Origin: Escherichia coli | GTDB lineage: Bacteria; Pseudomonadota; Gammaproteobacteria; Enterobacterales; Enterobacteriaceae | Length of the DNA stretch: 64,000 nucleotides | NCBI RefSeq assembly: GCF_048403405.1 | Contig: NZ_CP183129.1 | Reading direction: 5' to 3' (one strand) | Shown here: positions 11,469-38,073 of the stretch, one piece after another | Layout of the letters: every line of letters begins with the position of its first letter | How positions within the stretch are numbered: position 1 is the first letter of the stretch | Notes under the pieces: model-generated | Database searches by the model: none | The model's input: the letters and a program-made list of their open reading frames with translations, nothing else | What the model was told of the DNA's origin: nothing | Position numbers and translations under genes: made by a program

Positions 11469-11482
11469 TTGATTCCTATCAA
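11469..11482 (+). promoter_or_regulatory. FNR-type site TTGAT-TCCT-ATCAA upstream of ccp/yhjA
   Basis: Perfect match to the TTGAT-N4-ATCAA consensus about 110 bp upstream of the ccp start; ccp is known to be FNR/OxyR controlled. Confidence 0.5.
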
Positions 11483-23976: not shown

Positions 23977-24549
23977 TTATTGCTGCTTAACGAACAAACT
24001 GGCGAAGCTGAACAGGCTGGCGGCGCTAAATATCAGTTCAATACCCACCAGTGTGGAAACCAAAGTTACAGACACCATCGGCGTTGCACCAAGGAATATC
24101 CAGGCAATGACGATATCCAGCACACCAATAACGAGCTGTAGCCAGCTGCCTTTCATTGAACGCTGACGATACCAACTCATCAGGCGAATAACCCCTGCAA
24201 CACAGAACAAACCGGCAATAAATGCCGCAATGGCAAAAATGCCCAGCTCCGGTGCGCGGATGAAGAAATAGCCGATCAATAAATAGGCGACTGCGACGAG
24301 GAAACCGGATAATACAGGCCAGAAATTATGACTGCGGTTGCTGAATAATCCAACAATAAGCGCAACGCCCGAGCAGATTAATAATGCACCCACTACCGTG
24401 CTTAAAATATCGCCAGAGACGAACGGGAAACTGATACACAGCAACCCGACGATAAACAGCAACACGGCAATAAACTGGATTGCTCTGCGATGCTTTTTCA
24501 GCATCTCCAGATCAAACTTCAAAATTGTTGCCTTATCTATATATAACAT
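23977..24549 (-). CDS. hdeD: Acid-resistance inner membrane protein HdeD
   Basis: 190 aa, multi-TM; synteny. Confidence 0.9.
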   Translation of the reverse strand: MLYIDKATILKFDLEMLKKHRRAIQFIAVLLFIVGLLCISFPFVSGDILSTVVGALLICSGVALIVGLFSNRSHNFWPVLSGFLVAVAYLLIGYFFIRAPELGIFAIAAFIAGLFCVAGVIRLMSWYRQRSMKGSWLQLVIGVLDIVIAWIFLGATPMVSVTLVSTLVGIELIFSAASLFSFASLFVKQQ

Positions 24550-24803
24550 AGAACCACCCTATAAAATTAAGAAAAAAATCTCCTGCTATCAATCTATGCC
24601 AAAAACGCGTCTAAGAATGCAGTCGATTTAATAAAAATTTCCTAATTACAGTATCTGATGCATCTGTAACTCATTGTATTGAAATAAAAATATCTGATTT
24701 TGATATTTTCCATCAACATGACATATACAGAAAACCAGGTTATAACCTCAGTGTCGAAATTGATTCGTGACGGCTCTTTCACTTTATAGTTGAGGATATT
24801 ACG

Positions 24804-25136
24804 ATGAAAAAAGTATTAGGCGTTATTCTTGGTGGTCTGCTTCTTCTGCCAGTTGTGAGCAATGCAGCGGATGCGCAAAAAGCAGCTGATAACAAAAAAC
24901 CGGTCAACTCCTGGACCTGTGAAGATTTCCTGGCTGTGGACGAATCCTTCCAGCCAACTGCAGTTGGTTTTGCTGAAGCGCTGAACAACAAAGATAAACC
25001 AGAAGATGCGGTTTTAGATGTTCAGGGTATTGCAACCGTAACCCCAGCTATCGTTCAGGCTTGTACTCAGGATAAACAAGCCAACTTTAAAGATAAAGTT
25101 AAAGGCGAATGGGACAAAATTAAGAAAGATATGTAA
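24804..25136 (+). CDS. hdeA: Periplasmic acid-stress chaperone HdeA
   Basis: 110 aa with signal peptide; sequence matches HdeA. Confidence 0.95.
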   Translation: MKKVLGVILGGLLLLPVVSNAADAQKAADNKKPVNSWTCEDFLAVDESFQPTAVGFAEALNNKDKPEDAVLDVQGIATVTPAIVQACTQDKQANFKDKVKGEWDKIKKDM

Positions 25137-25251
25137 TTCCGGGAATGCGTTACATCGTACTTCCTTGCATATTGAACAGGCCGGAATATCTTCTTTAAAA
25201 GCAGCTATTCCTCCTGTTCATATATAATCTCTATATTGAATGGGTTACAAA

Positions 25252-25578
25252 ATGAATATTTCATCTCTCCGTAAAGCGTTTATTTTTATGGGCGCTGTAG
25301 CGGCTTTGTCACTGGTGAACGCACAATCTGCGCTGGCAGCCAATGAATCCGCTAAAGATATGACCTGCCAGGAATTTATTGATCTGAATCCAAAAGCAAT
25401 GACCCCGGTTGCATGGTGGATGCTGCATGAAGAGACAGTATATAAAGGTGGCGATACCGTTACTTTAAATGAAACCGATCTCACTCAAATTCCTAAAGTG
25501 ATCGAATACTGCAAGAAAAACCCGCAGAAAAATTTGTATACCTTCAAAAATCAAGCATCTAATGACTTGCCGAATTAA
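25252..25578 (+). CDS. hdeB: Periplasmic acid-stress chaperone HdeB
   Basis: 108 aa from MNISSLRKAF...; signal peptide; synteny. Confidence 0.92.
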   Translation: MNISSLRKAFIFMGAVAALSLVNAQSALAANESAKDMTCQEFIDLNPKAMTPVAWWMLHEETVYKGGDTVTLNETDLTQIPKVIEYCKKNPQKNLYTFKNQASNDLPN

Positions 25579-25595
25579 TGAGGTACAAGTAAAAA

Positions 25596-25635
25596 GGAGT
25601 AGCAAGTTGAGCCATCTTGCTGCTCCTTTTTGCAT
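25596..25635 (+). terminator. Hairpin plus T-run after hdeB (ggagtagcaag ... cttgctgctcc ttttt)
   Basis: Inverted repeat followed by TTTTT. Confidence 0.6.
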
Positions 25636-25641
25636 TTTTAT

Positions 25642-26289
25642 ATGACAGCAGAATTTATTATACGTCTTATACTCGCAGCAATTGCCTGTGGCGCTATTGG
25701 CATGGAAAGGCAAATGCGCGGCAAAGGAGCAGGGTTACGCACACATGTATTAATTGGCATGGGAAGCGCCCTGTTTATGATTGTTTCGAAATATGGTTTT
25801 GCTGACGTACTGTCTTTAGATCACGTCGGACTGGACCCCAGCCGTATTGCTGCTCAGGTGGTGACGGGCGTCGGGTTTATCGGTGCAGGTAACATTCTCG
25901 TTCGTAACCAAAATATTGTAGGTCTGACGACGGCAGCGGATATCTGGGTGACCGCCGCCATAGGTATGGTTATTGGCAGTGGTATGTACGAACTGGGTAT
26001 TTATGGTTCAGTGATGACCTTGCTGGTGCTGGAAGTGTTCCATCAATTAACCTTCCGCCTGATGAACAAAAATTACCATTTACAGCTGACATTAGTGAAC
26101 GGTAATACGGTATCAATGCTCGACTGGTTTAAGCAGCAAAAAATAAAAACTGATTTAGTTTCGTTGCAGGAAAATGAAGATCATGAAGTGGTCGCCATTG
26201 ATATCCAGCTTCATGCCACAACGTCGATAGAAGATCTGTTGCGATTATTAAAAGGTATGGCAGGGGTAAAAGGCGTTTCAATTAGCTAA
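25642..26289 (+). CDS. yhiD: MgtC-family inner membrane protein
   Basis: 215 aa from MTAEFIIRLILAAIACGAIGMERQ... Confidence 0.9.
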   Translation: MTAEFIIRLILAAIACGAIGMERQMRGKGAGLRTHVLIGMGSALFMIVSKYGFADVLSLDHVGLDPSRIAAQVVTGVGFIGAGNILVRNQNIVGLTTAADIWVTAAIGMVIGSGMYELGIYGSVMTLLVLEVFHQLTFRLMNKNYHLQLTLVNGNTVSMLDWFKQQKIKTDLVSLQENEDHEVVAIDIQLHATTSIEDLLRLLKGMAGVKGVSIS

Positions 26290-26308
26290 TCTGTATAGTT
26301 ATTTATTC

Positions 26309-26342
26309 GCAGGAGTACCAGTGCGGTACTCCTGTTGGTTTT
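26309..26342. terminator. Bidirectional hairpin between convergent yhiD and chuV (gcaggagtacc-agtgc-ggtactcctg)
   Basis: Perfect 10-11 bp inverted repeat. Confidence 0.6.
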
Positions 26343-27111
26343 AATGATCGAGGACGATCAGGGGTGAATGGTTGGCAGGATCTTTAAGTACGGTAATATC
26401 CGCGCCGTAAAGCATGGTCAGCGCCTGCTGTGTCAATACGTCCTGTGGTTTACCATTTGCGATAACCCTTCCTTTTTGCATTAATACAACACGGTCTGCA
26501 TAACGCGCGGCAAGATTTAGATCGTGCAATACGCAGCAAACATTGAACTGCCGTTCGTGAACTAACTGGCGTAATAAACGGAACAAGTGCTGCTGATGGT
26601 GAATATCCAGCGCCGAAGTTGGTTCATCAAGAAATAACCATTTCGGTGAGGGAGTAGGTTCCCAGAGTTGCACCAGCAGGCGCGCTAATTGCACGCGCTG
26701 TTGTTCACCACCGGATAATTGCCGATAGTCGCGGTTTGCTAACGCCTGACAGTCACATAACGCCATTATTTGTGCTGTTTCATTATCCTGATTACCAGTA
26801 CGATGCGGATGCCGACCCATCTGGATAACTTCTTGTACGCTGAATGGAAACGCCATGTGGCTATTTTGACGCATCACGGCCCGGTGTTTCGCCAGTTCAG
26901 TAATCGACCATTCATTTAATGGCTTATTAAACAACCGACATTCGCCGCTATCAGGTTGAAGATAGCCGGTTAACTGGCGAAGCAGCGTAGATTTTCCCGC
27001 ACCATTAGGGCCGAGAATGGCAACAATTTCCCCACCGGGAAAAGTCAGCGAGACATTGTCAGTCAGACGCCGCCCCTGAAGGCTATAAACCAGATTCTGG
27101 GCGCTGATCAT
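26341..27111 (-). CDS. chuV: Hemin ABC transporter ATP-binding protein
   Basis: About 256 aa from [10 protein letters not shown]...; Walker A (GPNGAGKST), ABC signature (LSGGEQQRV), Walker B (LFLDEP); start overlaps the chuU stop. Confidence 0.9.
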
Positions 27112-28100
27112 GTGATCCTCCGGTTGCGCAGAATCAACCACATAAAATAAGGACCGCCAAGCAGGCTGGTTAATAATCCCACGGGCATTTCTGCTGGCTG
27201 TACCAGCGTGCGGGCAAGCGTGTCTGCCATCAGCAATAAACAGGCTCCGGCGAGGGCGGAGCAAGGGATTAGCCAGCGGTGATTTGCCCCGGTAGTCATA
27301 CGAATCAGATGCGGGATCACCAGGCCAATAAAGCCGATAATGCCGCTTACCGATACGGCGGCACCAACGAGCAGTGAGCTCACTAACAGTAATTGCTGGC
27401 GTTTACGCTTAACGTTCACGCCGAGGTAGTGGGCTTCTTCATCACCGAGCTGCAGTAAATTCAGCGTTCCGGCGAGACAAGTTGTTGCGATAATGGCCGG
27501 TAGGATGAATGAACTGGCAACCAATAACGTCGGCCATTGCGCCTGTCCAAGATTGCCCATCATCCACAATGTGAGTTGTCGTAGCTGCTGCTCATCGCCG
27601 ATATAGCTCAGGATGCCGATCGCTGCGCCGCACAGGGCATTGATGGCGATACCGGCGAGTAATAATTGCATCATGCTGCCATCGCGATGGCGCTGCGTGA
27701 TGAGAAAAATGATGGTGCAGACCACTAAACTTCCGGCAATGGCAAACACCATTTGCTCATAGAGCACCAGCACCACTGGGAAGGAGAAGGGCAGCACAAT
27801 AGCAACGCCAACCATTAATGCAGAACCGCTACTGACGCCGAGTAATCCAGGGTCAGCCATTGGGTTGCGAAAAAGCCCCTGCATAATTACCCCGGCGGTT
27901 GCCAACGCTGCACCTACCAGCACCGCCAGCAAAACCCGTGGTAGACGAATATTGAGCCAGATATCGCGGTATTCCTCATCAAAAAGGGCATCAAAACTGA
28001 TCTTTAACGCTCCCTGACTGGCACCGAACAGCACCAGGGCAAGCAATAATAGTGATAGCCCCATAAAGACCCTGGCGGATGAAAATGAATCCTTGAGCAC
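27108..28100 (-). CDS. chuU: Hemin ABC transporter permease (FecCD family)
   Basis: 330-aa polytopic membrane protein; operon context. Confidence 0.9.
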
Positions 28101-28150
28101 GCAAAACTCCGTTATGACGTTGCGGCGCGGAGAGTCTGCGCCGCATGGGA

Positions 28151-28774
28151 TTACGCCGGTTTCAGGTCAGGTTCAATCAGACTGTAGATCTGCTTGTTGA
28201 GTGCTGGCGCGTTTGCCAGTTCATGAATGTGTGCAGCGACATCGGCACGGTGAACAAAACCATGACACTCCTGATTTTGTATCCGTTGTGCTTTGCCCGT
28301 TGCCGCCCCATCAAGCAGACCGCCAGGGCGGAGAATGGCGTAATCAAGCTGGCTGGTTTGCAACCAGCTTTCCGCCAGCGTTTTTTCCCGTACCGCCTGA
28401 CCAAACGCAGCCTTTGCCCGCTCCGATAAAAACGGCCAGCTATCGCCGCATCCCAAAGAGGTCACCAGAATCATGCGACTAATGCCGGCCTTTTCGGCCT
28501 CATCAATCACTGTTCTGTGCGCCAGATAATCCTGAGCTCCTCCCATTGTTGAGATGATAAGCGCATCCGGGCCAGCTGCGTGGCAAGCAGCCGCAACTAC
28601 GCTGGCATCACAGGCGTCGCCTGTAAAAACCTGTACGCCTTGTTGCGCCAGTTTCGTGGCGGCATCGGCATGACGAACGACAGCAACGACCGGACGTTGT
28701 TCCGCCAGCGCCAGTTCAAGCGTTCTGGCACCCACACCTTTTCCGCCTGCGCCAAAGAGTAGCCACGGCGTCAT
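28151..28774 (-). CDS. chuY: NAD(P)-binding Rossmann-fold protein ChuY (anaerobilin reductase-like)
   Basis: 207 aa; N-terminal nucleotide-binding motif (LLFGAGGKGVG); position in the chu operon. Confidence 0.8.
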   Translation of the reverse strand: MTPWLLFGAGGKGVGARTLELALAEQRPVVAVVRHADAATKLAQQGVQVFTGDACDASVVAAACHAAGPDALIISTMGGAQDYLAHRTVIDEAEKAGISRMILVTSLGCGDSWPFLSERAKAAFGQAVREKTLAESWLQTSQLDYAILRPGGLLDGAATGKAQRIQNQECHGFVHRADVAAHIHELANAPALNKQIYSLIEPDLKPA

Positions 28775-29268
28775 CAGGCGTGTTCCTTTAACGATGCCGC
28801 CAGAGCATGGAAAGCGTTGACCTGTTCGCTCAGGAGCTGACGATGGTCATCCCTGCCGAGGAAGATTTTCAGCATGGCGCTGCCTTCCTTATTGAAAAAG
28901 AGAATAGAGGCGGTGTCCATGCCCATAAATTTACGTTCGATCAAGGCAATATGTGTGCAGTTTTCTGCTTTGATATGCCCGGACATGCCGTGCTTTCCGC
29001 GTAGGTTGAAATAGCCGTGGCGGTGGAAACCCGAAGGCAGTTCGCCGCTAAATTCGAGGATTACATCGGCAGTATGTACTAACGTGGTGACGTTGCCCCA
29101 TTCGCAGACGGTATCCCAGACAGTATCGAATTTATCGCCTGACACTATGGTAGAGGAGGGCAGATTTTTCACTACTTCCAGCAGTGTGGTGTTGTATTGT
29201 TCGGCTACCACCTCCAGCGTACCGTCCGGCTCCGTTTTCAAAAATTCTTGTAACGAGACATGGCTCAT
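28774..29268 (-). CDS. chuX: Heme-binding/trafficking protein ChuX
   Basis: 164 aa; operon position between chuW and chuY; stop overlaps the chuY start. Confidence 0.8.
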   Translation of the reverse strand: MSHVSLQEFLKTEPDGTLEVVAEQYNTTLLEVVKNLPSSTIVSGDKFDTVWDTVCEWGNVTTLVHTADVILEFSGELPSGFHRHGYFNLRGKHGMSGHIKAENCTHIALIERKFMGMDTASILFFNKEGSAMLKIFLGRDDHRQLLSEQVNAFHALAASLKEHA

Positions 29269-29280
29269 AAATCACTCCTG

Positions 29281-30618
29281 TTATGGTTTTTCACGCACAA
29301 TCGCTGGCGCATTAAGTACCTGAATTAGTTCATTAAGAGACTGCAAAATATTGCTTGCCCAGAAACGACCTTCATTAGTCAGCCGCAGGCAAGTTGACGC
29401 ATCGCGACTTAAGCCTTTTTGGTGCCATTGAGCCAGTAACGGCGCGAGTTTTTCGGCATGTGGCGTAAGTTCATCCAGCGGTACACGCGCTGTTTCAACA
29501 CCTGACTGCAAGGTATGACGCCATTGCGCATCACGTTCGGCGTTACGCATGATCATCATCAGCGGTTTTTTGCCTGCCGCGACGGATTCATGCCAGGTCT
29601 GAAGATTGCGTTCGTTCATCCAGGAGTAACCATTAATCGAACCGCCGGCTCCGGAACCAAAGGCCAGACAATCGGCACCTTGTTTAATCAGCAGGTTATA
29701 GAGATTGCGTTCGCGTGTGGTACGGCCCCAGTGGCTGTTACTGATGCAGCGCCAACCGGCTTCGTCCATGAAGTCACACCCTTGCAGATAAAGATCGCGA
29801 CGTTCTGCCGGAGAGGGCACGGTAGTGCGCCCATTTTCCACGGCTTTGCCCAGCGGTGTATTGGGCAGGACATTGAGCGCATAGAGATCGACGCCGTCGA
29901 GACCGATATCGCGAGCAATAGCCAGATCTTCTCCCCAGGTTTGCGCATCCTGACCCGGCAGGCCAAACAGCAGGTCACAGACCACCGCAGCACGGTCGCG
30001 TTTGACCAGGCTTTCCATAAACGCAATGGCGGTTGGGCCATCCGAGGTGCGGGCCATTTTCTTACGGATTTTGCTGTTAAACGACTGAATACCAATTGAG
30101 AAGCGGTTTGCTCCTGCATCAAGGCAAGCATCGATTCGCTCAGCGTCAAAATTCAGTACCCGGCCTTCGATAGTGATTTCACAATCAGGGGCCAGTGGCA
30201 GCTTTTCTCGTAATATATTGATAATTCTGGCTAAATCGTGTGCAGAAAGCGCGGAAGGCGTGCCGCCACCGAAATAGACCGCGTGGATGGGGGCAGACTG
30301 ATGCAATACGCTGTCCGCTTCCATTTCTATTTCACGAATCAGGGCGTCGGTATAATGAGCACACGCATCCTCATTAAAACGGTTCTGATAAAAACCACAA
30401 AACGTGCAGTGTGTCGCACAAAAAGGAATGTGTAGATAAACCAGTCGCTTACGTGGTGATACCGTTTGATTGATCATCTCTTGCCAGGTCTGTGCCAGTT
30501 GCTCTTTGGCAACCGGAATGGCTCCACGAAACGGCATCATGGCGCGCCTGTCTTTAAATGGCTGATCACCGTCTAAAGCAAAATGTGGCGTGAGATCCAG
30601 GGTGTTATTTGCGTTCAT
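29281..30618 (-). CDS. chuW: Radical-SAM anaerobic heme-degrading methyltransferase ChuW (HemN-like)
   Basis: 445 aa; radical-SAM Cys cluster (CATHCTFC). Confidence 0.88.
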   Translation of the reverse strand: MNANNTLDLTPHFALDGDQPFKDRRAMMPFRGAIPVAKEQLAQTWQEMINQTVSPRKRLVYLHIPFCATHCTFCGFYQNRFNEDACAHYTDALIREIEMEADSVLHQSAPIHAVYFGGGTPSALSAHDLARIINILREKLPLAPDCEITIEGRVLNFDAERIDACLDAGANRFSIGIQSFNSKIRKKMARTSDGPTAIAFMESLVKRDRAAVVCDLLFGLPGQDAQTWGEDLAIARDIGLDGVDLYALNVLPNTPLGKAVENGRTTVPSPAERRDLYLQGCDFMDEAGWRCISNSHWGRTTRERNLYNLLIKQGADCLAFGSGAGGSINGYSWMNERNLQTWHESVAAGKKPLMMIMRNAERDAQWRHTLQSGVETARVPLDELTPHAEKLAPLLAQWHQKGLSRDASTCLRLTNEGRFWASNILQSLNELIQVLNAPAIVREKP

Positions 30619-30637
30619 TCGTCTGATTTAAATCCAT

Positions 30638-31552
30638 TTATTGCGGCCAAAGCTGCTGGTGTAAAGACTCAACGACATCAGCAATACGCGGACCCATTCC
30701 CAGAATCAGGTTTTGATCAACGGTGATAATGCGCTGGTTTTTCCATGCGGCAGTGTGGGTAATTCCGGCAATAGAACGTAGCCGATTAATATCGCCATCG
30801 ACCATTTGTGAGGTTACGACAATCACTTCTGGATTGGCCGCAATCAGTGATTCTGCACTGTAGCTTTTGTACTGCTGGTGGGTTGCGACGTTTTCTGCTC
30901 CGGCAAGCGAAAGAATGGCGTCCGCGACGCTGCCTTTACCGGCAACCTGTGGCGCACTTCCGCCTGCGGAGAGAATAAACATGGCTTTAACCGGGGCTTT
31001 TTTGGCCGCCACGTTTTGCTGTACTCGCTCCAGGCGTTGGTTGATCTGTGTCACCAGCGCCTCGCCTTGTTCAGGAACCTGTAGCGTTTTTGCCAGTTGG
31101 CGAATGTTGGCGTACATCTGCTCAAGGGTGGCAGGCACACGCGGCAGGGTAACGACGTTGACTTTCTGCGCCCGCAGCTGGTCGAGCACAATTTGTGGCC
31201 CGGCATCCTGCCAGGTAATTACGCTATCCGGGCGAAGTGACAAAATGCCTTCGCTGCTGAGTTGTTTCCAGTAGCCAATATGCGGCAGTTTGGCGGTTTC
31301 TGGTGGGTAAGATGTCGTTTCATCGACACCAACCACGCGTTCGCCAGCGCCCATCGCGTAGATTAGCTCCGTCAGCGATCCTCCTGCGACCACGATACGT
31401 TCGGCAGCCGTTACGCTAAAAGCCCAGCTAAGAGCCAGTACTGCCGTAAACAATTTTTTTCGTTTTACCGCGGTCTTCGCGGCAGAGGCCACGGCTGAAA
31501 TACATAACGTCAGTGGGGAAAAAAGAAACGGCCTGGTGATGATCCTTGGCAT
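30638..31552 (-). CDS. chuT: Periplasmic hemin-binding protein ChuT
   Basis: Start chosen at the internal Met (MPRIITRPF..., ~304 aa) because a Fur box lies inside the longer ORF-track call. Start still uncertain; a GTG start nearer the signal peptide is possible. Confidence 0.8.
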   Translation of the reverse strand: MPRIITRPFLFSPLTLCISAVASAAKTAVKRKKLFTAVLALSWAFSVTAAERIVVAGGSLTELIYAMGAGERVVGVDETTSYPPETAKLPHIGYWKQLSSEGILSLRPDSVITWQDAGPQIVLDQLRAQKVNVVTLPRVPATLEQMYANIRQLAKTLQVPEQGEALVTQINQRLERVQQNVAAKKAPVKAMFILSAGGSAPQVAGKGSVADAILSLAGAENVATHQQYKSYSAESLIAANPEVIVVTSQMVDGDINRLRSIAGITHTAAWKNQRIITVDQNLILGMGPRIADVVESLHQQLWPQ

Positions 31553-31581
31553 AATATGAGAACTCTTATCAAGTTGAGAAT

Positions 31582-31607
31582 GATCATGATTATCATTTGA
31601 GTTATAT
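31582..31607. promoter_or_regulatory. Fur box at the chuT operon promoter (gagAATGATcATgATTATCATT)
   Basis: Close match to the GATAATGATAATCATTATC consensus about 30 bp upstream of the chuT ATG. Confidence 0.6.
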
Positions 31608-31927
31608 ATGAAATACAACCGTCGATTCAATACGCACGGCGTTACAAGCGTATTTATTTTTGATTTTTATCAAGATGCTTCGTCAGCTAACGTTCTTGTT
31701 ACCGACTAAATTTCAGCGCGGGAAAAAGCTGAGAACCCAGAGATATCAAGGCTTGCAGAGCAAAGCGAAGAGAAAATTATCACTGTTAACGACAAAGTTT
31801 AGTGATGAGGTCATGGGGGAATAACCATAAAAACAAAGTGGTTTCCAGGGCGCAGGATAAGTTTCATAACCCCCTGTTTATTGTGTTAATGGCGGTTAAA
31901 AAAAAGCTTGATCATAAAAAATTGATC

Positions 31928-31946
31928 GATAATAATTCTCATTATC
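31928..31946. promoter_or_regulatory. Fur box at the chuA promoter (GATAATAATTCTCATTATC)
   Basis: 15 of 19 positions match the Fur consensus; about 290 bp upstream of the chuA ATG, implying a long 5' leader. Confidence 0.65.
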
Positions 31947-32235
31947 ACGTTTGTATTTAACAAAATACGGCCATATGGATAACAAAGCCATATCATTTAC
32001 AAGGGGTAACGCACAGCGCTCTTCACTCCTGATGGGGCATATCGTTTTGCCTGACAAAGAGGGCGTGCTTTTGCGTATTTGCCGAGATACCAGGCAATTT
32101 CATGGGATATAAACGCCTGTAAACTCACCCGGCGAATATTATCGCTCTGAATTTTAAATAAATTTATTTTTCGCCAGCCACCCCGGTATTAACCCAGGCA
32201 GCCAGCATTTTTTATTTTCCTCATGGAGAATCGCT

Positions 32236-34218
32236 ATGTCACGTCCGCAATTTACCTCGTTGCGTTTGAGTTTGTTGGCTTTGGCTGTTTCTGCCACCTT
32301 GCCAACGTTTGCTTTTGCTACTGAAACCATGACCGTTACGGCAACGGGGAATGCCCGTAGTTCCTTCGAAGCGCCTATGATGGTCAGCGTCATCGACACT
32401 TCCGCTCCTGAAAATCAAACGGCTACTTCAGCCTCCGATCTGCTGCGTCATGTTCCTGGAATTACTCTTGATGGTACCGGACGAACCAACGGCCAGGATG
32501 TAAATATGCGTGGCTATGATCATCGCGGCGTGCTGGTTCTTGTCGATGGTGTTCGCCAGGGAACGGATACCGGACACCTGAATGGCACTTTTCTCGATCC
32601 AGCGCTGATCAAGCGTGTTGAGATTGTTCGCGGACCTTCAGCATTACTGTATGGCAGTGGTGCGCTGGGTGGAGTGATCTCCTACGATACGGTCGATGCA
32701 AAAGATTTATTGCAGGAAGGACAAAGCAGTGGTTTTCGTGTCTTTGGTACTGGCGGCACGGGGGACCATAGCCTGGGATTAGGCGCGAGCGCGTTTGGGC
32801 GAACTGAAAATCTGGATGGTATTGTGGCCTGGTCCAGTCGCGATCGGGGTGATTTACGCCAGAGCAATGGTGAAACCGCGCCGAATGACGAGTCCATTAA
32901 TAACATGCTGGCGAAAGGGACCTGGCAAATTGATTCAGCCCAGTCTCTGAGCGGTTTAGTGCGTTACTACAACAACGACGCGCGTGAACCAAAAAATCCG
33001 CAGACCGTTGAAGCTTCTGATAGCAGCAACCCGATGGTTGATCGTTCAACAATTCAACGCGATGCGCAGCTTTCTTATAAACTCGCCCCGCAGGGCAACG
33101 ACTGGTTAAATGCAGATGCAAAAATTTACTGGTCGGAAGTCCGTATTAATGCGCAAAACACGGGGAGTTCCGGCGAGTATCGTGAACAGATAACAAAAGG
33201 AGCCAGGCTGGAGAACCGTTCCACTCTATTTGCCGACAGTTTCGCTTCTCACTTACTGACATATGGCGGTGAGTATTATCGTCAGGAACAACATCCGGGC
33301 GGCGCGACGACGGGCTTCCCGCAAGCAAAAATCGATTTTAGCTCCGGCTGGCTACAGGATGAGATCACCTTACGAGATCTGCCGATTACTCTGCTTGGCG
33401 GAACCCGCTATGACAGTTATCGCGGTAGCAGCGACGGCTACAAAGATGTTGATGCCGACAAATGGTCATCTCGCGCGGGGATGACTATCAACCCGACTAA
33501 CTGGCTGATGTTATTTGGCTCATATGCCCAGGCATTCCGCGCCCCGACGATGGGCGAAATGTATAACGATTCTAAGCACTTCTCGATTGGTCGCTTCTAT
33601 ACCAACTATTGGGTGCCAAACCCGAACTTACGTCCGGAAACTAACGAAACTCAGGAGTACGGTTTTGGGCTGCGTTTTGATGACCTGATGTTGTCCAATG
33701 ATGCCCTGGAATTTAAAGCCAGCTACTTTGATACCAAAGCGAAGGATTACATCTCCACGACCGTCGATTTCGCGGCGGCGACAACTATGTCGTATAACGT
33801 CCCGAACGCCAAAATCTGGGGCTGGGATGTGATGACGAAATATACCACTGATCTGTTTAGCCTTGATGTGGCCTATAACCGTACCCGCGGCAAAGACACC
33901 GATACCGGCGAATATATCTCCAGTATTAACCCGGATACCGTTACCAGCACCCTGAATATTCCGATCGCTCACAGTGGCTTCTCTGTTGGGTGGGTTGGTA
34001 CGTTTGCCGATCGCTCAACACATATCAGCAGCAGTTACAGCAAACAACCAGGCTATGGCGTGAATGATTTCTACGTCAGTTATCAAGGACAACAGGCGCT
34101 CAAAGGTATGACCACTACTTTGGTGTTGGGTAACGCTTTCGACAAAGAGTACTGGTCGCCACAAGGCATCCCACAGGATGGTCGTAATGGAAAAATTTTC
34201 GTGAGTTATCAATGGTAA
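32236..34218 (+). CDS. chuA: TonB-dependent outer membrane heme/hemoglobin receptor
   Basis: 660 aa; signal peptide, TonB-box-like N-terminus (ETMTVTA), C-terminal beta-barrel ending in aromatic residues (FVSYQW). Confidence 0.93.
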   Translation: MSRPQFTSLRLSLLALAVSATLPTFAFATETMTVTATGNARSSFEAPMMVSVIDTSAPENQTATSASDLLRHVPGITLDGTGRTNGQDVNMRGYDHRGVLVLVDGVRQGTDTGHLNGTFLDPALIKRVEIVRGPSALLYGSGALGGVISYDTVDAKDLLQEGQSSGFRVFGTGGTGDHSLGLGASAFGRTENLDGIVAWSSRDRGDLRQSNGETAPNDESINNMLAKGTWQIDSAQSLSGLVRYYNNDAREPKNPQTVEASDSSNPMVDRSTIQRDAQLSYKLAPQGNDWLNADAKIYWSEVRINAQNTGSSGEYREQITKGARLENRSTLFADSFASHLLTYGGEYYRQEQHPGGATTGFPQAKIDFSSGWLQDEITLRDLPITLLGGTRYDSYRGSSDGYKDVDADKWSSRAGMTINPTNWLMLFGSYAQAFRAPTMGEMYNDSKHFSIGRFYTNYWVPNPNLRPETNETQEYGFGLRFDDLMLSNDALEFKASYFDTKAKDYISTTVDFAAATTMSYNVPNAKIWGWDVMTKYTTDLFSLDVAYNRTRGKDTDTGEYISSINPDTVTSTLNIPIAHSGFSVGWVGTFADRSTHISSSYSKQPGYGVNDFYVSYQGQQALKGMTTTLVLGNAFDKEYWSPQGIPQDGRNGKIFVSYQW

Positions 34219-34266
34219 TCATCTGCCCCGATATTTCGGGGCATTTATCTGGAAGGAAGAGAGACA

Positions 34267-35295
34267 ATGAACCACTACACACGCTGGCTTGAGTTAAAAG
34301 AACAAAATCCCGGAAAGTACGCGCGTGACATCGCAGGTTTAATGAATATTAGCGAAGCAGAACTGGCATTTGCACGCGTCACGCACGATGCGTGGCGGAT
34401 GCGCGGCGATATCCGTGACATTCTGGCGGCGCTCGAAAGTGTTGGCGAGACCAAATGTATTTGTCGTAATGAATATGCAGTCCATGAGCAAGTTGGTGCG
34501 TTCACAAACCAGCATTTGAACGGACATGCCGGATTGATCCTCAATCCACGCGCGCTGGATTTGCGTCTGTTTCTCAATCAATGGGCCAGTGTTTTTCACA
34601 TTAAAGAAAATACGACTCGTGGCGAACGCCAGAGTATTCAGTTCTTTGATCATCAGGGCGATGCATTACTAAAAGTTTATGCCACCGACAATACCGATAT
34701 GGCGGCATGGAGTGAGCTTCTGGCACGGTTTATCACCGATGAGAATACGCCGCTTGAGTTAAAAGCCGTTGATGCGCCAGTCGTTCAAATGCGAGCCGAT
34801 GCCAGTGTGGTCGAGCAAGAGTGGCGGGCGATGACCGACGTTCATCAGTTTTTTACGTTGCTCAAGCGCCACAACCTGACGCGCCAACAGGCGTTCAATC
34901 TGGTGGCAGACGATTTGGCCTGCAAAGTATCCAACAGTGCGTTGGCGCAAATTCTTGAATCTGCACAGCAGGATGGCAATGAAATCATGGTGTTTGTTGG
35001 CAACCGTGGCTGCGTACAGATTTTCACTGGCGTGGTAGAAAAAGTGGTGCCAATGAAAGGTTGGCTGAATATTTTTAACCCGACGTTTACTCTTCATCTA
35101 TTAGAAGAGAGCATTGCTGAAACCTGGGTAACCCGTAAACCTGCTAGTGACGGTTATGTGACCAGTCTGGAATTGTTTGCCCATGATGGTACGCAGATAG
35201 CGCAACTTTATGGTCAACGTACAGAAGGCGAACAGGAGCAAGCGCAATGGCGTAAGCAAATTGCTTCGCTGATACCGGAAGGCGTTGCTGCATAA
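34267..35295 (+). CDS. chuS: Heme oxygenase / heme-degrading protein ChuS
   Basis: 342 aa; immediately downstream of chuA. Confidence 0.88.
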   Translation: MNHYTRWLELKEQNPGKYARDIAGLMNISEAELAFARVTHDAWRMRGDIRDILAALESVGETKCICRNEYAVHEQVGAFTNQHLNGHAGLILNPRALDLRLFLNQWASVFHIKENTTRGERQSIQFFDHQGDALLKVYATDNTDMAAWSELLARFITDENTPLELKAVDAPVVQMRADASVVEQEWRAMTDVHQFFTLLKRHNLTRQQAFNLVADDLACKVSNSALAQILESAQQDGNEIMVFVGNRGCVQIFTGVVEKVVPMKGWLNIFNPTFTLHLLEESIAETWVTRKPASDGYVTSLELFAHDGTQIAQLYGQRTEGEQEQAQWRKQIASLIPEGVAA

Positions 35296-35355
35296 CGTAT
35301 AATTAACGGGAGGTCTGGCTATTTATTGCTGGGCCTCTTTATATTGATCAATCGT

Positions 35356-35886
35356 TCACACCAGATAATCAATATGCTGATGGCGTACCAGCTCATTGAT
35401 CCGCTTAAGATTGAGGATCATCATGATATTGTGTTTATGGCAGTAGAACGTTTTTAGCGATATTTTCAGTTTCTCCAGAATATCTTCCGTTGTCATTTGA
35501 TTCGCAATGCAGCTCAGAACCTGATGCTGCTTGCGCGAAAGGGACACATCCGCTTCAGGCACAGAGCAGTAACTGCCATTGATGAGTGCGACAAAGTCGA
35601 TGATGGTGATAGTTCGCGGAACAAAGGTCACCGGTACTTTCCCCAGGCAGCGTTTAATATTAAAGGGAGAGAAAATAATCACATGGACAGGTTTTAATCG
35701 TTCAATTTGAGTGAGCAAATTAGAATGAAATACATTATTCATTAATGTATCAATAATGACGAAGGCATGCTGATGCAACATTACGTCGATCTCTTCTTCG
35801 TTCTGTATATGAACGACATTACCTTTACTCAGAATGTTTTTCATCGCAGTGAAGAACATCGTATCCCTGGTAATTATAAGAAACAT
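35356..35886 (-). CDS. dctR: LuxR-family regulator DctR (YhiF)
   Basis: 176 aa; sequence matches YhiF/DctR; C-terminal LuxR HTH. Confidence 0.9.
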   Translation of the reverse strand: MFLIITRDTMFFTAMKNILSKGNVVHIQNEEEIDVMLHQHAFVIIDTLMNNVFHSNLLTQIERLKPVHVIIFSPFNIKRCLGKVPVTFVPRTITIIDFVALINGSYCSVPEADVSLSRKQHQVLSCIANQMTTEDILEKLKISLKTFYCHKHNIMMILNLKRINELVRHQHIDYLV

Positions 35887-36038
35887 AACCGACTCCTGGT
35901 GCGGACATTAACTTTATAATCAGTTTGCCAAAGGTAATTAACAGGACAGGGCTTATAATAATAGTTAGCTGGCTGTGTATTAATTTGATGTAATGCATGA
36001 TGCAGATGCTGAGAAAGCATCTGCATCTCTCGGTGGTG

Positions 36039-36605
36039 TTATTTGACCAGCTCAGGTGTTACCTGACTCACCGCATTGGTGTAGTAAGGCGCGCCCCAGC
36101 CCGGTTCCGGCCAGAATGCACCATAGCCGTAATCCCACAGGTTATAGGTGGTATTAACCACTTCTCTCAAATGCCACACCTGGATGCCCTGCATATTCAC
36201 TTCGAGGAAGTTATACGGGACTTTATTGATAAAGCCAGGTTGTTCACCCTGAATGGTACCGAGGATGGTAACAAAGTGATTACGATAGTTCACTGGATCA
36301 AGGAAGCCGCTTTGTCTGGCGAGCAGTCGGCCCTGATAGTTGGCTTCAATATCAGGCTTCGCATAGCTATCCAACGGTAATACAGCGATTTCTAACAACG
36401 TATCCGTTTTGCCATTGATAACGTTGATAACCTTCCCACCAAAGCGCGCTTGTTGACCAACATATAACCCCGGCTGGTTATGAACAGCAACAAAACTTTT
36501 TTGAATATCAGGTTGGTTATTGCCTTTGATATTTTGCGGAATTGAACTACATGCGGCAAGCAAAAATGAAAGGCTGAGGATGAGTGCACCTTTTGTCATG
36601 TTCAT
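36039..36605 (-). CDS. slp: Outer membrane lipoprotein Slp (starvation/acid inducible)
   Basis: 188 aa from MNMTKGALILSLSFLLAACSS (lipobox LAAC); the ORF-track N-terminal extension is rejected. Confidence 0.9.
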   Translation of the reverse strand: MNMTKGALILSLSFLLAACSSIPQNIKGNNQPDIQKSFVAVHNQPGLYVGQQARFGGKVINVINGKTDTLLEIAVLPLDSYAKPDIEANYQGRLLARQSGFLDPVNYRNHFVTILGTIQGEQPGFINKVPYNFLEVNMQGIQVWHLREVVNTTYNLWDYGYGAFWPEPGWGAPYYTNAVSQVTPELVK

Positions 36606-36849
36606 GTTACTATCCTTATCAACAAATATTAAAACCATAATAGATATTTCTTTATAGTTTTCATCTGATTCTGAGGCGATATGCCTGATAGTAACGTAAA
36701 CCTGTCTGATGTTTATATCCCTTCTGTTTAGTTTAATTCTGTTAATTTTGGGGCGTGACATGAGTATCCATCGCCCCATAAAATAGCCTTTTTTTAAAGG
36801 TACATAAAATCTATTTTTATTCAATGATTATAAAGTGCTAATGTTCATA

Positions 36850-38073
36850 TTATGGGATTATATTCTGGTAATGATTTGATAAGCGAATTCTTTTGCCAGT
36901 TGGTGTTTCTATTTCCACCCCATAATTTATAGTTTTTTCATCAGGTAGCGATCTCTTTAAATAAGGTGCGCATGACATTTTTTTTGGGTTAAGCGTCTCG
37001 CGTTGAAATACTTCGAATTGATATTCAGACATTTCTGCCCATGTTTGAATTTTATTGTATCGGGAGAGTGTCGTAAAGGCTTTAACTTGCTTATAACATT
37101 GTTTTTTGAATTCTTGCTGATATTTTAATATGTCATTGTATGAAATATTGGTTATCCTGGCCTCTAAGAATTTAATTATTGTCGAAGCAATTTCCGCTTT
37201 TGCTCGTAAAAAGTTGTCATTAATGGTTAATAATGTTGAAAATAAACCTTCGATTTGTTTGTCAAGATATTGTTCGTCTTTATATAATTTTGGGGCAGGG
37301 TGTTCTTTATGTGAAAAAATAGTGTCACCTAAATTTGCGTCAGTGAAATTTATATTAAGTAGATCTTCGAAATAAAACCTTGACAAGGTTAGAACGAACC
37401 CGGACAGGTTCTGTCCTGTCATATTGAAATCAATAAAGTTGGTTCCGGCAAAGACTTTCATCCTGTTTTTATTTTCACTGTGCTCAATATATAACTTCGT
37501 CATTTTTTGATACAGGTTTTGAATATCTTTTATATTAGTCGGTAAGTCAGCTCGTTGTTCAGCAATAAAATTAGTATCTGAAAACATGGTTTGGACACTG
37601 AATCTTACTGGTATTCCCTCTTCTACGCTAATTTTAGTTATGATTGCCTTGTCGGGTTTAGGATTAGCGACAACAATGATTCGACATTCAGCACTTTTGT
37701 TTTTTTCGTATCTAATGTTATTAATCTGATTAAGTATTGATTGTGTCTGTTGCGTAAGTGGTGTCGAACTTATCGTTTCAATGTTAGTAATAAGACTTAC
37801 AAGTTGAGTCACAACTTTTGAGTATTCTGCATTTGTATATGTAGTGTTCGTGTGGCACGCATTAATTTGTTGGAGTTGTTGTTGCGCTAAATCAAATTGT
37901 TCAGCGTTATATCCTTCTTCAGACAATGAAAAATTAATGGGTTGCTGTTCTTCCTGATTATCACAAGGCCACATCGGTGTGTCTGGTGTTTTAACATTGT
38001 CGGTATCTGTTGTGCGGTTATAAATATCGCCGTGATATGTATTTATCATACCTGGGGTAAAGTCAATTGACAT
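36850..38073 (-). CDS. Hypothetical 407-aa protein with a C-terminal pentapeptide-repeat region; possibly the intact form of yhiS
   Basis: Long ORF in AT-rich DNA; residues ~205-250 show a 5-residue periodicity ([43 protein letters not shown]); sits where K-12 carries the IS5-disrupted yhiS remnant. Confidence 0.6.

Follow-up and report, generated by a model that had tools for sequence, protein, structure and literature searches.

A complete chu locus between yhiD and dctR

The window (the whole 64-kb stretch of Escherichia coli DNA that was analysed) carries eight intact heme genes between yhiD and dctR, with chuV-U-Y-X-W-T on the minus strand and chuA-chuS, divergent from them, on the plus strand (Table 1). 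An ORF scan combined with NCBIfam models returned exactly the eight genes claimed by the first-pass annotation, and their arrangement in two divergent units is borne out by ORFs, protein families, structure matches and RefSeq annotation. The RefSeq genome concerned, E. coli GN02461, is 100% identical to the locus DNA, uses identical gene names and flags none of the eight as a pseudogene. Protein searches, named beforehand as the way to overturn the Chu/Shu homology, instead matched every product to a characterised Chu/Shu protein: ChuV, ChuW, ChuX and ChuA have equivalog-level NCBIfam matches, and ChuS, ShuA/ChuA, ShuT, ChuY and ChuX match solved structures over their full length. The ChuU assignment combines annotation with permease-family matches that score under the equivalog cut-offs of other substrates. 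On this sequence evidence, 26295-35354 is almost certainly the canonical eight-gene chu (shu) heme uptake and utilisation locus.

Base-by-base comparison with K-12 places the break points at 26294/26295 and 35354/35355; the interval proposed earlier (26290-35355) is the full intergenic interval and was right to within 5 nt. It had also been claimed that yhiD and dctR are neighbours without chu in K-12, where indeed only 41 nt separate them. The yhiD-dctR (yhiF) position is thus occupied here and empty in K-12. This is the usual site of chu/shu, within the acid fitness island, and its placement there has been published (Wyckoff 1998; Bush 2018). The identification is correct but ordinary, and already known.

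Table 1 Features of the chu locus and its flanks in the window.
Feature	Position	Strand	Evidence and remarks
yhiD, left flank (acid fitness island)	25642..26289	+	NF007431 401.7 bits; annotation
chu locus versus K-12 empty site	26295..35354		9,060 bp replacing 35 nt; base-by-base K-12 comparison; occupied/empty allele alignments
Left-end hairpin between convergent yhiD and chuV stops	26309..26335		11-bp stem, then UUGGUUUU (T-tract)
chuV, heme ABC transporter ATPase	26341..27111	-	NF010068 397.5 bits vs cut-off 261; RefSeq annotation
chuU, heme ABC transporter permease	27108..28100	-	FecCD/BtuC-type permease matches; annotated ShuU/ChuU
chuY, anaerobilin reductase	28151..28774	-	Full-length PDB 5FFQ/5GUY (ShuY-like/ChuY), E 8.5e-133; annotation
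chuX, cytosolic heme carrier	28774..29268	-	TIGR04108 HutX 210 bits; PDB 2OVI ChuX, E 3.4e-107
chuW, radical SAM methyltransferase, anaerobic heme degradation	29281..30618	-	TIGR04107 rSAM_HutW 569.7 bits vs cut-off 400
chuT, periplasmic heme-binding protein	30638..31552	-	PDB 2R7A (ShuT), E 1.7e-162; annotation
chuT operon Fur box (predicted)	31576..31594		3 mismatches to consensus, 0 expected; transcript +1..+19
chuT promoter (inferred), TTGAAT-18-TATAAC	31601..31630	-	By-eye reading, positioned from published shuT start
Candidate FNR site, perfect consensus palindrome TTGATTTTTATCAA	31660..31673		Centred 72.5 nt upstream of chuT start
chuA promoter, TTGATC-17-AATAAT	31908..31936	+	Promoter scan; invariant across lineages
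chuA Fur box (predicted), overlaps -10 and start	31928..31946		2 mismatches, minus strand, 0 expected
FourU RNA thermometer masking chuA Shine-Dalgarno	32207..32238	+	Rfam RF02597 shuA_thermo 60.1 bits vs gathering score 58
chuA, TonB-dependent outer-membrane heme/hemoglobin receptor	32236..34218	+	TIGR01785 588 bits; PDB 9DHE, 3FHH (ShuA), E 0
GC-rich hairpin and T-tract, chuA-chuS gap (function inferred)	34224..34243	+	8-bp stem; -16.1 kcal/mol, z -4.1
chuS, heme oxygenase / heme-degrading protein	34267..35295	+	PDB 1U9T/4CDP (ChuS), E 1e-227; annotation
chuS terminator hairpin	35308..35339	+	Followed by UUUAUAUU; -18.4 kcal/mol, z -4.8
dctR (yhiF), right flank (acid fitness island)	35356..35886	-	Annotation; LuxR-type HTH matches

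The function of the Chu pathway has been established in orthologues, and we infer it for this locus from near-identity. ChuA would take heme, or heme derived from hemoglobin, across the outer membrane with TonB energy, ChuT would act as the periplasmic heme carrier and ChuUV as the importer. With oxygen present, ChuS would break down cytoplasmic heme; with oxygen absent, the radical-SAM enzyme ChuW would open the ring to give anaerobilin, ChuY would reduce the anaerobilin, and ChuX would handle heme.

Fur boxes, leader elements and terminators

The Fur consensus GATAATGATAATCATTATC has only two matches with three or fewer mismatches in the 64 kb, where shuffles expect 0.00, and these predicted boxes fall at the two chu promoters. 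Both Fur boxes proposed in the first-pass annotation are real as sequence matches; the coordinates given for the chuA box were exact, but the chuT box, placed at 31582-31607, lies 6 nt further left. The shuT Fur site at +1 to +19 and the transcription start 42 nt upstream of the ATG have been defined experimentally (PMC5458455), and both map exactly onto 31576-31594. The position of the chuA promoter puts its start near 31943 and hence gives a leader of about 293 nt, the published length being 291-293 nt (PMC3660397).

Near the end of this leader, the predicted FourU hairpin pairs UUUUCCU with AGGAGAA, so that the U-run lies against the Shine-Dalgarno sequence, and the element scores above the gathering threshold of its Rfam family. 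Thermometer function of FourU has been shown (PMC3660397). A thermometer has also been reported on the shuT leader (PMC5458455); folding of the chuT leader here gave no significant predicted structure (z -0.14). The other Rfam matches in the region (mir-761, ceN63 and hammerhead HH9) lie far under their gathering scores and are attributed to chance. The FourU sequence is invariant across the compared lineages, the chuA Fur box is 100% conserved, E. albertii included, and the chuT Fur box has one change in E. albertii and is invariant elsewhere. With that single exception, Fur boxes, chuA promoter and thermometer all stay invariant in a chuT-chuA spacer that is otherwise 78-88% identical.

The left-end hairpin folds strongly in both directions (-19.4 kcal/mol on the plus strand, z -4.8, and -17.9 kcal/mol on the minus strand; no shuffle equals it) and is placed to end transcription of both yhiD and chuV; it is likely a bidirectional terminator. 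A hairpin here (26309-26342) had been described as shared with the yhiD terminator. The hairpin is present, but it is not a K-12 terminator that the island shares: it begins 15 nt inside island-specific DNA that K-12 lacks, and the K-12 yhiD-dctR spacer has no significant structure (z -0.5). It is kept in ST131, 2013C-4465 and the E69 lineage. At the right end, the stem of the chuS terminator persists through base changes in E. albertii and other species (stem arms GGTCTGGC/GCTGGGCC versus GGTCCGGC/GCCGGGCC, by-eye reading), and its loop varies in length. The FourU thermometer, the 293-nt chuA leader, the chuA-chuS hairpin and the chuS terminator had gone unmentioned in the first-pass annotation.

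Together, these elements suggest a scheme in which chuAS and chuTWXYUV form two divergent units, and Fe-Fur would repress each of them at a box that overlaps its transcription start. The FourU thermometer at the end of the ~293-nt leader would additionally gate chuA translation, and the strong hairpins at both ends of the locus would insulate chu from yhiD and dctR.

Distribution and age of the occupied and empty alleles

The chu locus occupies the site in 2,234 of 5,426 complete E. coli genomes (41%), and nearly all of the remainder are empty. Its earlier description as typical of pathogenic lineages is too narrow, since chu-positive E. coli include bovine faecal isolates and the range of the locus extends to E. 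albertii and further Escherichia species. E. albertii and three further species representatives carry the occupied allele. E. whittamii and Escherichia sp. E1V33 carry the empty one, whose spacer is clearly homologous to the K-12 spacer (a score reached by 0 of 5,000 shuffles). E. albertii is without yhiD, so the left junction differs among species.

The hallmarks of a classical mobile or pathogenicity island (tRNA site, integrase or IS, direct repeats and deviant composition) do not characterise this locus. There is no tRNA at 20000-42000, the annotation holds no integrase, transposase or other mobility gene at the locus, and the longest repeat common to both ends is an 8-mer (P = 0.14) that is missing from ST131. 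At 50.4%, the GC content of the locus is close to that of the window (48.8%); the flanks are at about 41%. Given this lack of mobility features and the occurrence of both alleles in several Escherichia species, the chu locus reads best as a long-standing part of the slp-gadA region, inherited vertically along with it, rather than as a recent insertion in this strain. The earlier wording of an embedded island suggests a recent insertion, but the locus has diverged in step with its flanks: E. coli and E. albertii share 88-92% identity in the chu genes and 84-92% in the flanking genes. This evolutionary reading draws on a handful of genomes, among which ancient polymorphism and exchange by recombination in the flanks look alike.

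Exchange of the alleles among lineages by homologous recombination through the conserved flanks, with the patchiness reflecting allele replacement, is quite possible, though we would put it short of an even chance. Each allele is found in several species and carries a private junction sequence (a spacer of 35-42 nt versus 9 kb), and the flanks of chu-positive and chu-negative E. coli are 98-100% identical. Gene conversion or transfer has been raised as an option (PMC5799925). Against this, the comparison covered just five to eleven sequences. Such exchange is compatible with an old co-inherited locus and would refine that explanation.

We consider it improbable that chu is a recent pathogenicity island, inserted horizontally into an ancestral K-12-like yhiD-dctR spacer of chuA-positive lineages. 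Presence and absence do vary among E. coli lineages at a precise site, the GC content of the locus is unlike that of the AT-rich flanks, and the chu/shu distribution has for many years been described as a puzzle (Wyckoff 1998, as cited in PMC5799925). However, departure from genome-average GC is a property of the flanks rather than of the locus, and neither tRNA, integrase, IS nor significant flanking repeats accompany it. In addition, when E. coli is compared with E. albertii or the E69 lineage, the chu genes have diverged about as far as slp, dctR and hdeAB, and four other species representatives retain the occupied right junction with its terminator. A decayed or silent locus in this strain is hardly credible: in some lineages virulence genes commonly carry loss-of-function alleles (PMC9144400), with nothing specific here, but each of the eight ORFs matches a solved structure or family model over its full length, the identical RefSeq genome carries no pseudogene flag, and promoter, Fur-box and thermometer sequences are intact.

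The 35-nt K-12 spacer has no convincing derivation from either end of the locus. We rejected the spacer as a remnant of the island ends. Its best island match, in reverse orientation at 35306-35321, at the chuS terminator (15/17), is not significant against the whole island (173/300 shuffles), is only nominally so against the ends (P 0.004-0.04, K-12 versus E. coli-type ends), and fails to recur with the empty spacers of E. whittamii or E1V33. In forward orientation, TAATTGTGCGGAGG downstream of chuS in the E69 lineage resembles TAATGTGTGCGGCAGG in E. whittamii by eye (P only 0.07-0.2); a real relationship would point to a clean indel with a short direct repeat. Two further likenesses were set aside: AAGGCGTT, common to the 3' ends of yhiD and chuS, is a chance match away from the junction (one alignment), and TATTTATT, at both ends (26300, 35320), failed as a flanking repeat (P = 0.14, absent from ST131).

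Relation to described heme systems

The shu locus of Shigella dysenteriae (shuA, shuS and shuTWXYUV; Wyckoff et al. 1998, as cited in PMC5799925) has the identical eight genes, divergent layout and yhiD-dctR (yhiF) site, and differs from the locus here in allelic sequence only, with no structural difference seen. The chu loci of E. coli O157:H7 and UPEC, in their enlarged acid fitness island, share the same organisation (PMC9144400, PMC9002310, PMC3660397), together with the ~293-nt chuA leader, Fur box and FourU element. Over 13 kb, DNA identity to ST131 and an EHEC-like strain is 96.9-97.8%. The chuT-chuA spacer of ST131 is only 88.5% identical, which fits the reported divergence of EHEC and UPEC leaders, and the chuS terminator loop is 4 nt longer here than in ST131.

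More distantly, the heme systems Yersinia hemRSTUV/hmu, Pseudomonas phu and Vibrio hutWXZ are related to chu. Homology extends to the receptor, the periplasmic binding protein, the ABC importer and the HemS/PhuS-type cytoplasmic protein (structure matches: HemS E 5.9e-151, PhuS-like E 5e-76, HmuT E 6e-43), and the HutW and HutX family models match ChuW and ChuX. All three differ in gene order and genomic context, and are homologues rather than the same locus.

Published work already covers the chu locus and where it sits, its control by Fur and by temperature, and its placement together with the acid fitness island, so that the finding carries little weight as a discovery. chuA is, moreover, a standard phylotyping marker. 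The value of the present annotation lies in exact boundaries, corrected Fur-box coordinates and the regulatory RNA elements.

A candidate FNR site and the allelic polymorphism as leads

Beyond the published picture, we tentatively propose that chuTWXYUV may receive a direct, undescribed oxygen input through FNR and, separately, that the yhiD-dctR alleles may represent an ancient Escherichia presence/absence polymorphism; as a whole we regard this proposal, drawn from sequence comparison, as possible but rather unlikely. The occurrence of both alleles in several Escherichia species offers a modest lead on the distribution puzzle noted since 1998.

The candidate FNR site is one of two perfect FNR-consensus matches in 64 kb, and inside a variable spacer it stays unchanged across five Escherichia lineages that range from E. 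coli to E. albertii. Class I FNR promoters carry TTGAT-N4-ATCAA centred near -61.5, -71.5 or -82.5, and the palindrome is centred at -72.5 when counted from the chuT start inferred through the shuT mapping. A literature search found no published description of a chuT-upstream FNR palindrome. If the proposal is true, FNR would activate chuTWXYUV anaerobically and match the oxygen-sensitive ChuW/ChuX/ChuY branch to anoxia, adding to the known Fur control and the reported shuT-leader thermometer. The conserved FNR-type site would thus be a modest lead linking anaerobic heme degradation to oxygen sensing.

Identity and boundaries of the chu locus

Between the yhiD-like and dctR-like ORFs, an ORF scan of 24000-38000 placed six leftward and two rightward ORFs. 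Compared base by base, the left flank matches K-12 through 26294 and the right flank resumes the match at 35355; the 9,060 bp between them (26295-35354) replace 35 nt in K-12, where yhiD and dctR are convergent and lie 41 nt apart. The proposed insertion site relative to K-12 is borne out. Junctions are the same in ST131 and strain 2013C-4465, and a second chu-negative strain has the same empty site as K-12. Four of the eight chu ORFs have NCBIfam equivalog-level matches, and five products match solved structures over their full length; ChuW has only distant relatives (HemN) among solved structures. Since family models and Chu/Shu structures both match, the possibility that these ORFs are not Chu/Shu homologues can be set aside.

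When 24500-37500 was searched by megablast in a set of 5,426 complete E. coli genomes, strain GN02461 matched with 100% identity; RefSeq annotates the match as yhiD, chuV (unnamed), shuU, chuY, hutX, hutW, shuT, chuA, chuS, dctR and slp, with no pseudogene flags within the locus. The occupied allele, with chu at yhiD-dctR, is found in 2,234 of these genomes, and nearly all the rest match the flanks only. The wider setting is the acid fitness island (slp-dctR-[chu]-yhiD-hdeBA-hdeD-gadE-mdtEF-gadW-gadX-gadA). In S. dysenteriae this locus is called shu, and O157:H7 and UPEC carry it as chu. PMC5799925 credits Wyckoff et al. 1998 with describing its placement between yhiD and yhiF/dctR, Bush et al. 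2018 (PMC5799925) reported that it is co-located with the acid fitness island, and STEC genomics uses this co-location descriptively, with a fitness island of about 22 kb versus about 13 kb (PMC9144400). The first-pass annotation is confirmed overall and its interpretation supported with small corrections, but the locus is already known and finding it here adds nothing new.

Features of the chu locus and compared loci (L-numbers are handles of compared loci)
Feature	Position	Details
chuT Fur box (predicted)	31576-31594	extends to 42 nt upstream of chuT ATG
FNR consensus palindrome, perfect	31660-31673	TTGATTTTTATCAA (TTGAT-TTTT-ATCAA); centre 72.5 nt upstream of chuT start
Conserved block adjoining FNR-type site	about 31674-31695	GATGCTTCGTCAGCTAAC
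Second perfect FNR-consensus match	11469-11482	TTGATTCCTATCAA; outside chu region
chuA Fur box (predicted)	31928-31946	overlaps -10 of promoter-like site 31908-31936
shuA/chuA FourU thermometer	32207-32238	Rfam, exceeds gathering score
Left hairpin	26309-26335	between yhiD and chuV stops
chuA-chuS hairpin	34224-34243	GC-rich, T-tract, within 48-nt gap; -16.1 kcal/mol, z -4.1
chuS terminator hairpin	35308-35339	after chuS
Empty yhiD-dctR spacers compared	L008 343-390; L010 8504-8551; L002 2791-2831	
E. albertii left end	L013 19566-19622	chuV stop a few bases from hdeB terminator hairpin
Heme ABC ATPase (chuV)		NCBIfam 397.5 bits, cut-off 261
ChuW/HutW radical SAM methyltransferase		NCBIfam 569.7 bits, cut-off 400
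HutX/ChuX		NCBIfam 210 bits, cut-off 110; structure 2OVI, E 3.4e-107, full-length
TonB-dependent heme/hemoglobin receptor (chuA)		NCBIfam 588 bits, cut-off 317; ChuA/ShuA structures 9DHE and 3FHH, E 0, full-length
ChuS		structure 1U9T, E 1e-227, full-length
ShuT (chuT product)		structure 2R7A, E 1.7e-162, full-length
ChuY		structures 5FFQ/5GUY, E 8.5e-133, full-length
yhiD, MgtC/SapB family		NCBIfam 401.7 bits

Occupied and empty alleles across Escherichia

The marks of a mobile island are wanting at the chu locus: no tRNA was found in the region, no integrase or IS is annotated in the locus, and the only repeat common to both ends is an 8-mer (P = 0.14) that is absent from ST131. The GC content of the locus (50.4%) is near the window average (48.8%), and the deviation belongs to the flanking acid-fitness genes (about 41%). 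A DctR-motif pattern scan of species-representative genomes yielded six Escherichia loci; chuS adjoins dctR in four (E. albertii, two records labelled E. coli, and MOD1-EC7003), and yhiD does so in two (E. whittamii and Escherichia sp. E1V33). Presence and absence of chu are thus common to several species, the occupied allele being that of E. albertii and of three further species representatives. Homology among the empty spacers (41-42 nt) is clear for K-12, E. whittamii and E1V33, since none of 5,000 shuffles reached the score; comparison with the chu ends did not yield a derivation of the empty spacer from them.

Because both alleles occur in several species, the sequences indicate that they either predate the species boundaries or were exchanged across them; the data are compatible with ancient polymorphism as well as with recombinational exchange. 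In the comparison of E. coli with E. albertii, identity is 88-92% for chu genes and 84-92% for flanking genes, which fits co-divergence of the locus with its flanks. E. albertii carries the complete chu locus without yhiD, of which no remnant is detectable, an arrangement also described by Bush et al. (PMC5799925).

Regulatory elements in the chuT-chuA spacer

A Fur-box scan of the 64 kb, allowing up to three mismatches, gave exactly two matches (0.00 expected), both within the 683-bp chuT-chuA spacer. One coincides exactly with the chuA box of the first-pass annotation; the chuT box it had placed at 31582-31607 is present, one hexamer away from those coordinates. The predicted chuT box is the same element as the functional shuT Fur site of Wei et al., which has three mismatches and occupies +1 to +19 of a transcript whose start was mapped 42 nt upstream of the ATG (PMC5458455). 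The position of the chuA promoter-like site predicts a start near 31943 and a leader of ~293 nt; published chuA leaders are 293 nt in UPEC (PMC3660397) and 291 nt (PMC9002310). In the predicted FourU fold, the U-run pairs with the Shine-Dalgarno sequence.

We aligned the spacer from five lineages (the window, ST131, 2013C-4465, the E69 lineage and E. albertii), among which overall identity falls to 78-88%. The spacer (31553-32235; 88.5% versus ST131, 77.6% versus E. albertii) is much more diverged than the neighbouring genes, and chu genes are 95-99% identical to those of ST131. Across the five, neither the promoter nor the Fur box of chuA varies, nor do the thermometer and the final ~65 nt ahead of the chuA ATG; within the chuT Fur box only E. 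albertii differs, at one position. The FNR-type site, one of two perfect consensus matches in the window, also lies in a block unchanged in all five lineages, E. albertii included, with variable surroundings. Judging from the sequence, it is plausible that FNR provides input to the operon for the anaerobic heme-degradation enzymes. The literature searched held nothing relevant on FNR sites paired with chu or shu genes, and neither the shuT regulation paper nor a Shigella iron review mentions this site.

Drawing on established knowledge of orthologues and the cited papers, we propose that heme would cross the outer membrane by way of ChuA and be passed on by ChuT and ChuUV to the cytoplasm, where ChuS would degrade it aerobically and ChuW, ChuX and ChuY would handle it anaerobically. 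Fe-Fur would repress both promoters and temperature would gate chuA translation; additional control of chuAS by sRNAs and Rho is reported (PMC9002310).

Hairpins and a neighbouring ORF

The locus contains three strong hairpins. The left one had been described as shared with the yhiD terminator; it was instead brought in by the chu locus and is not part of a yhiD terminator common to K-12, because folding of the K-12 yhiD-dctR spacer gave no significant structure (z about -0.5). The chuA-chuS hairpin could be an attenuator of read-through, or a processing or stability element in a bicistronic chuAS transcript. The chuS terminator was compared with homologous positions in five other loci (L003, L006, L007, L009 and L011); the terminator and right junction are kept in occupied alleles, and, read by eye, the E. 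albertii stem retains pairing with base changes on both arms. The terminator loop has a 4-nt indel among E. coli lineages (CTATTTATTG versus CTGTTG).

Downstream of slp lies an uninterrupted 407-aa yhiS-like ORF (36850-38073). This gene is split by IS5 in K-12 and frameshifted in the RefSeq annotation of GN02461, whose identity to the window was compared up to 37500; the annotation of strain LR9-2 has an intact hypothetical protein of the same length, 407 aa.
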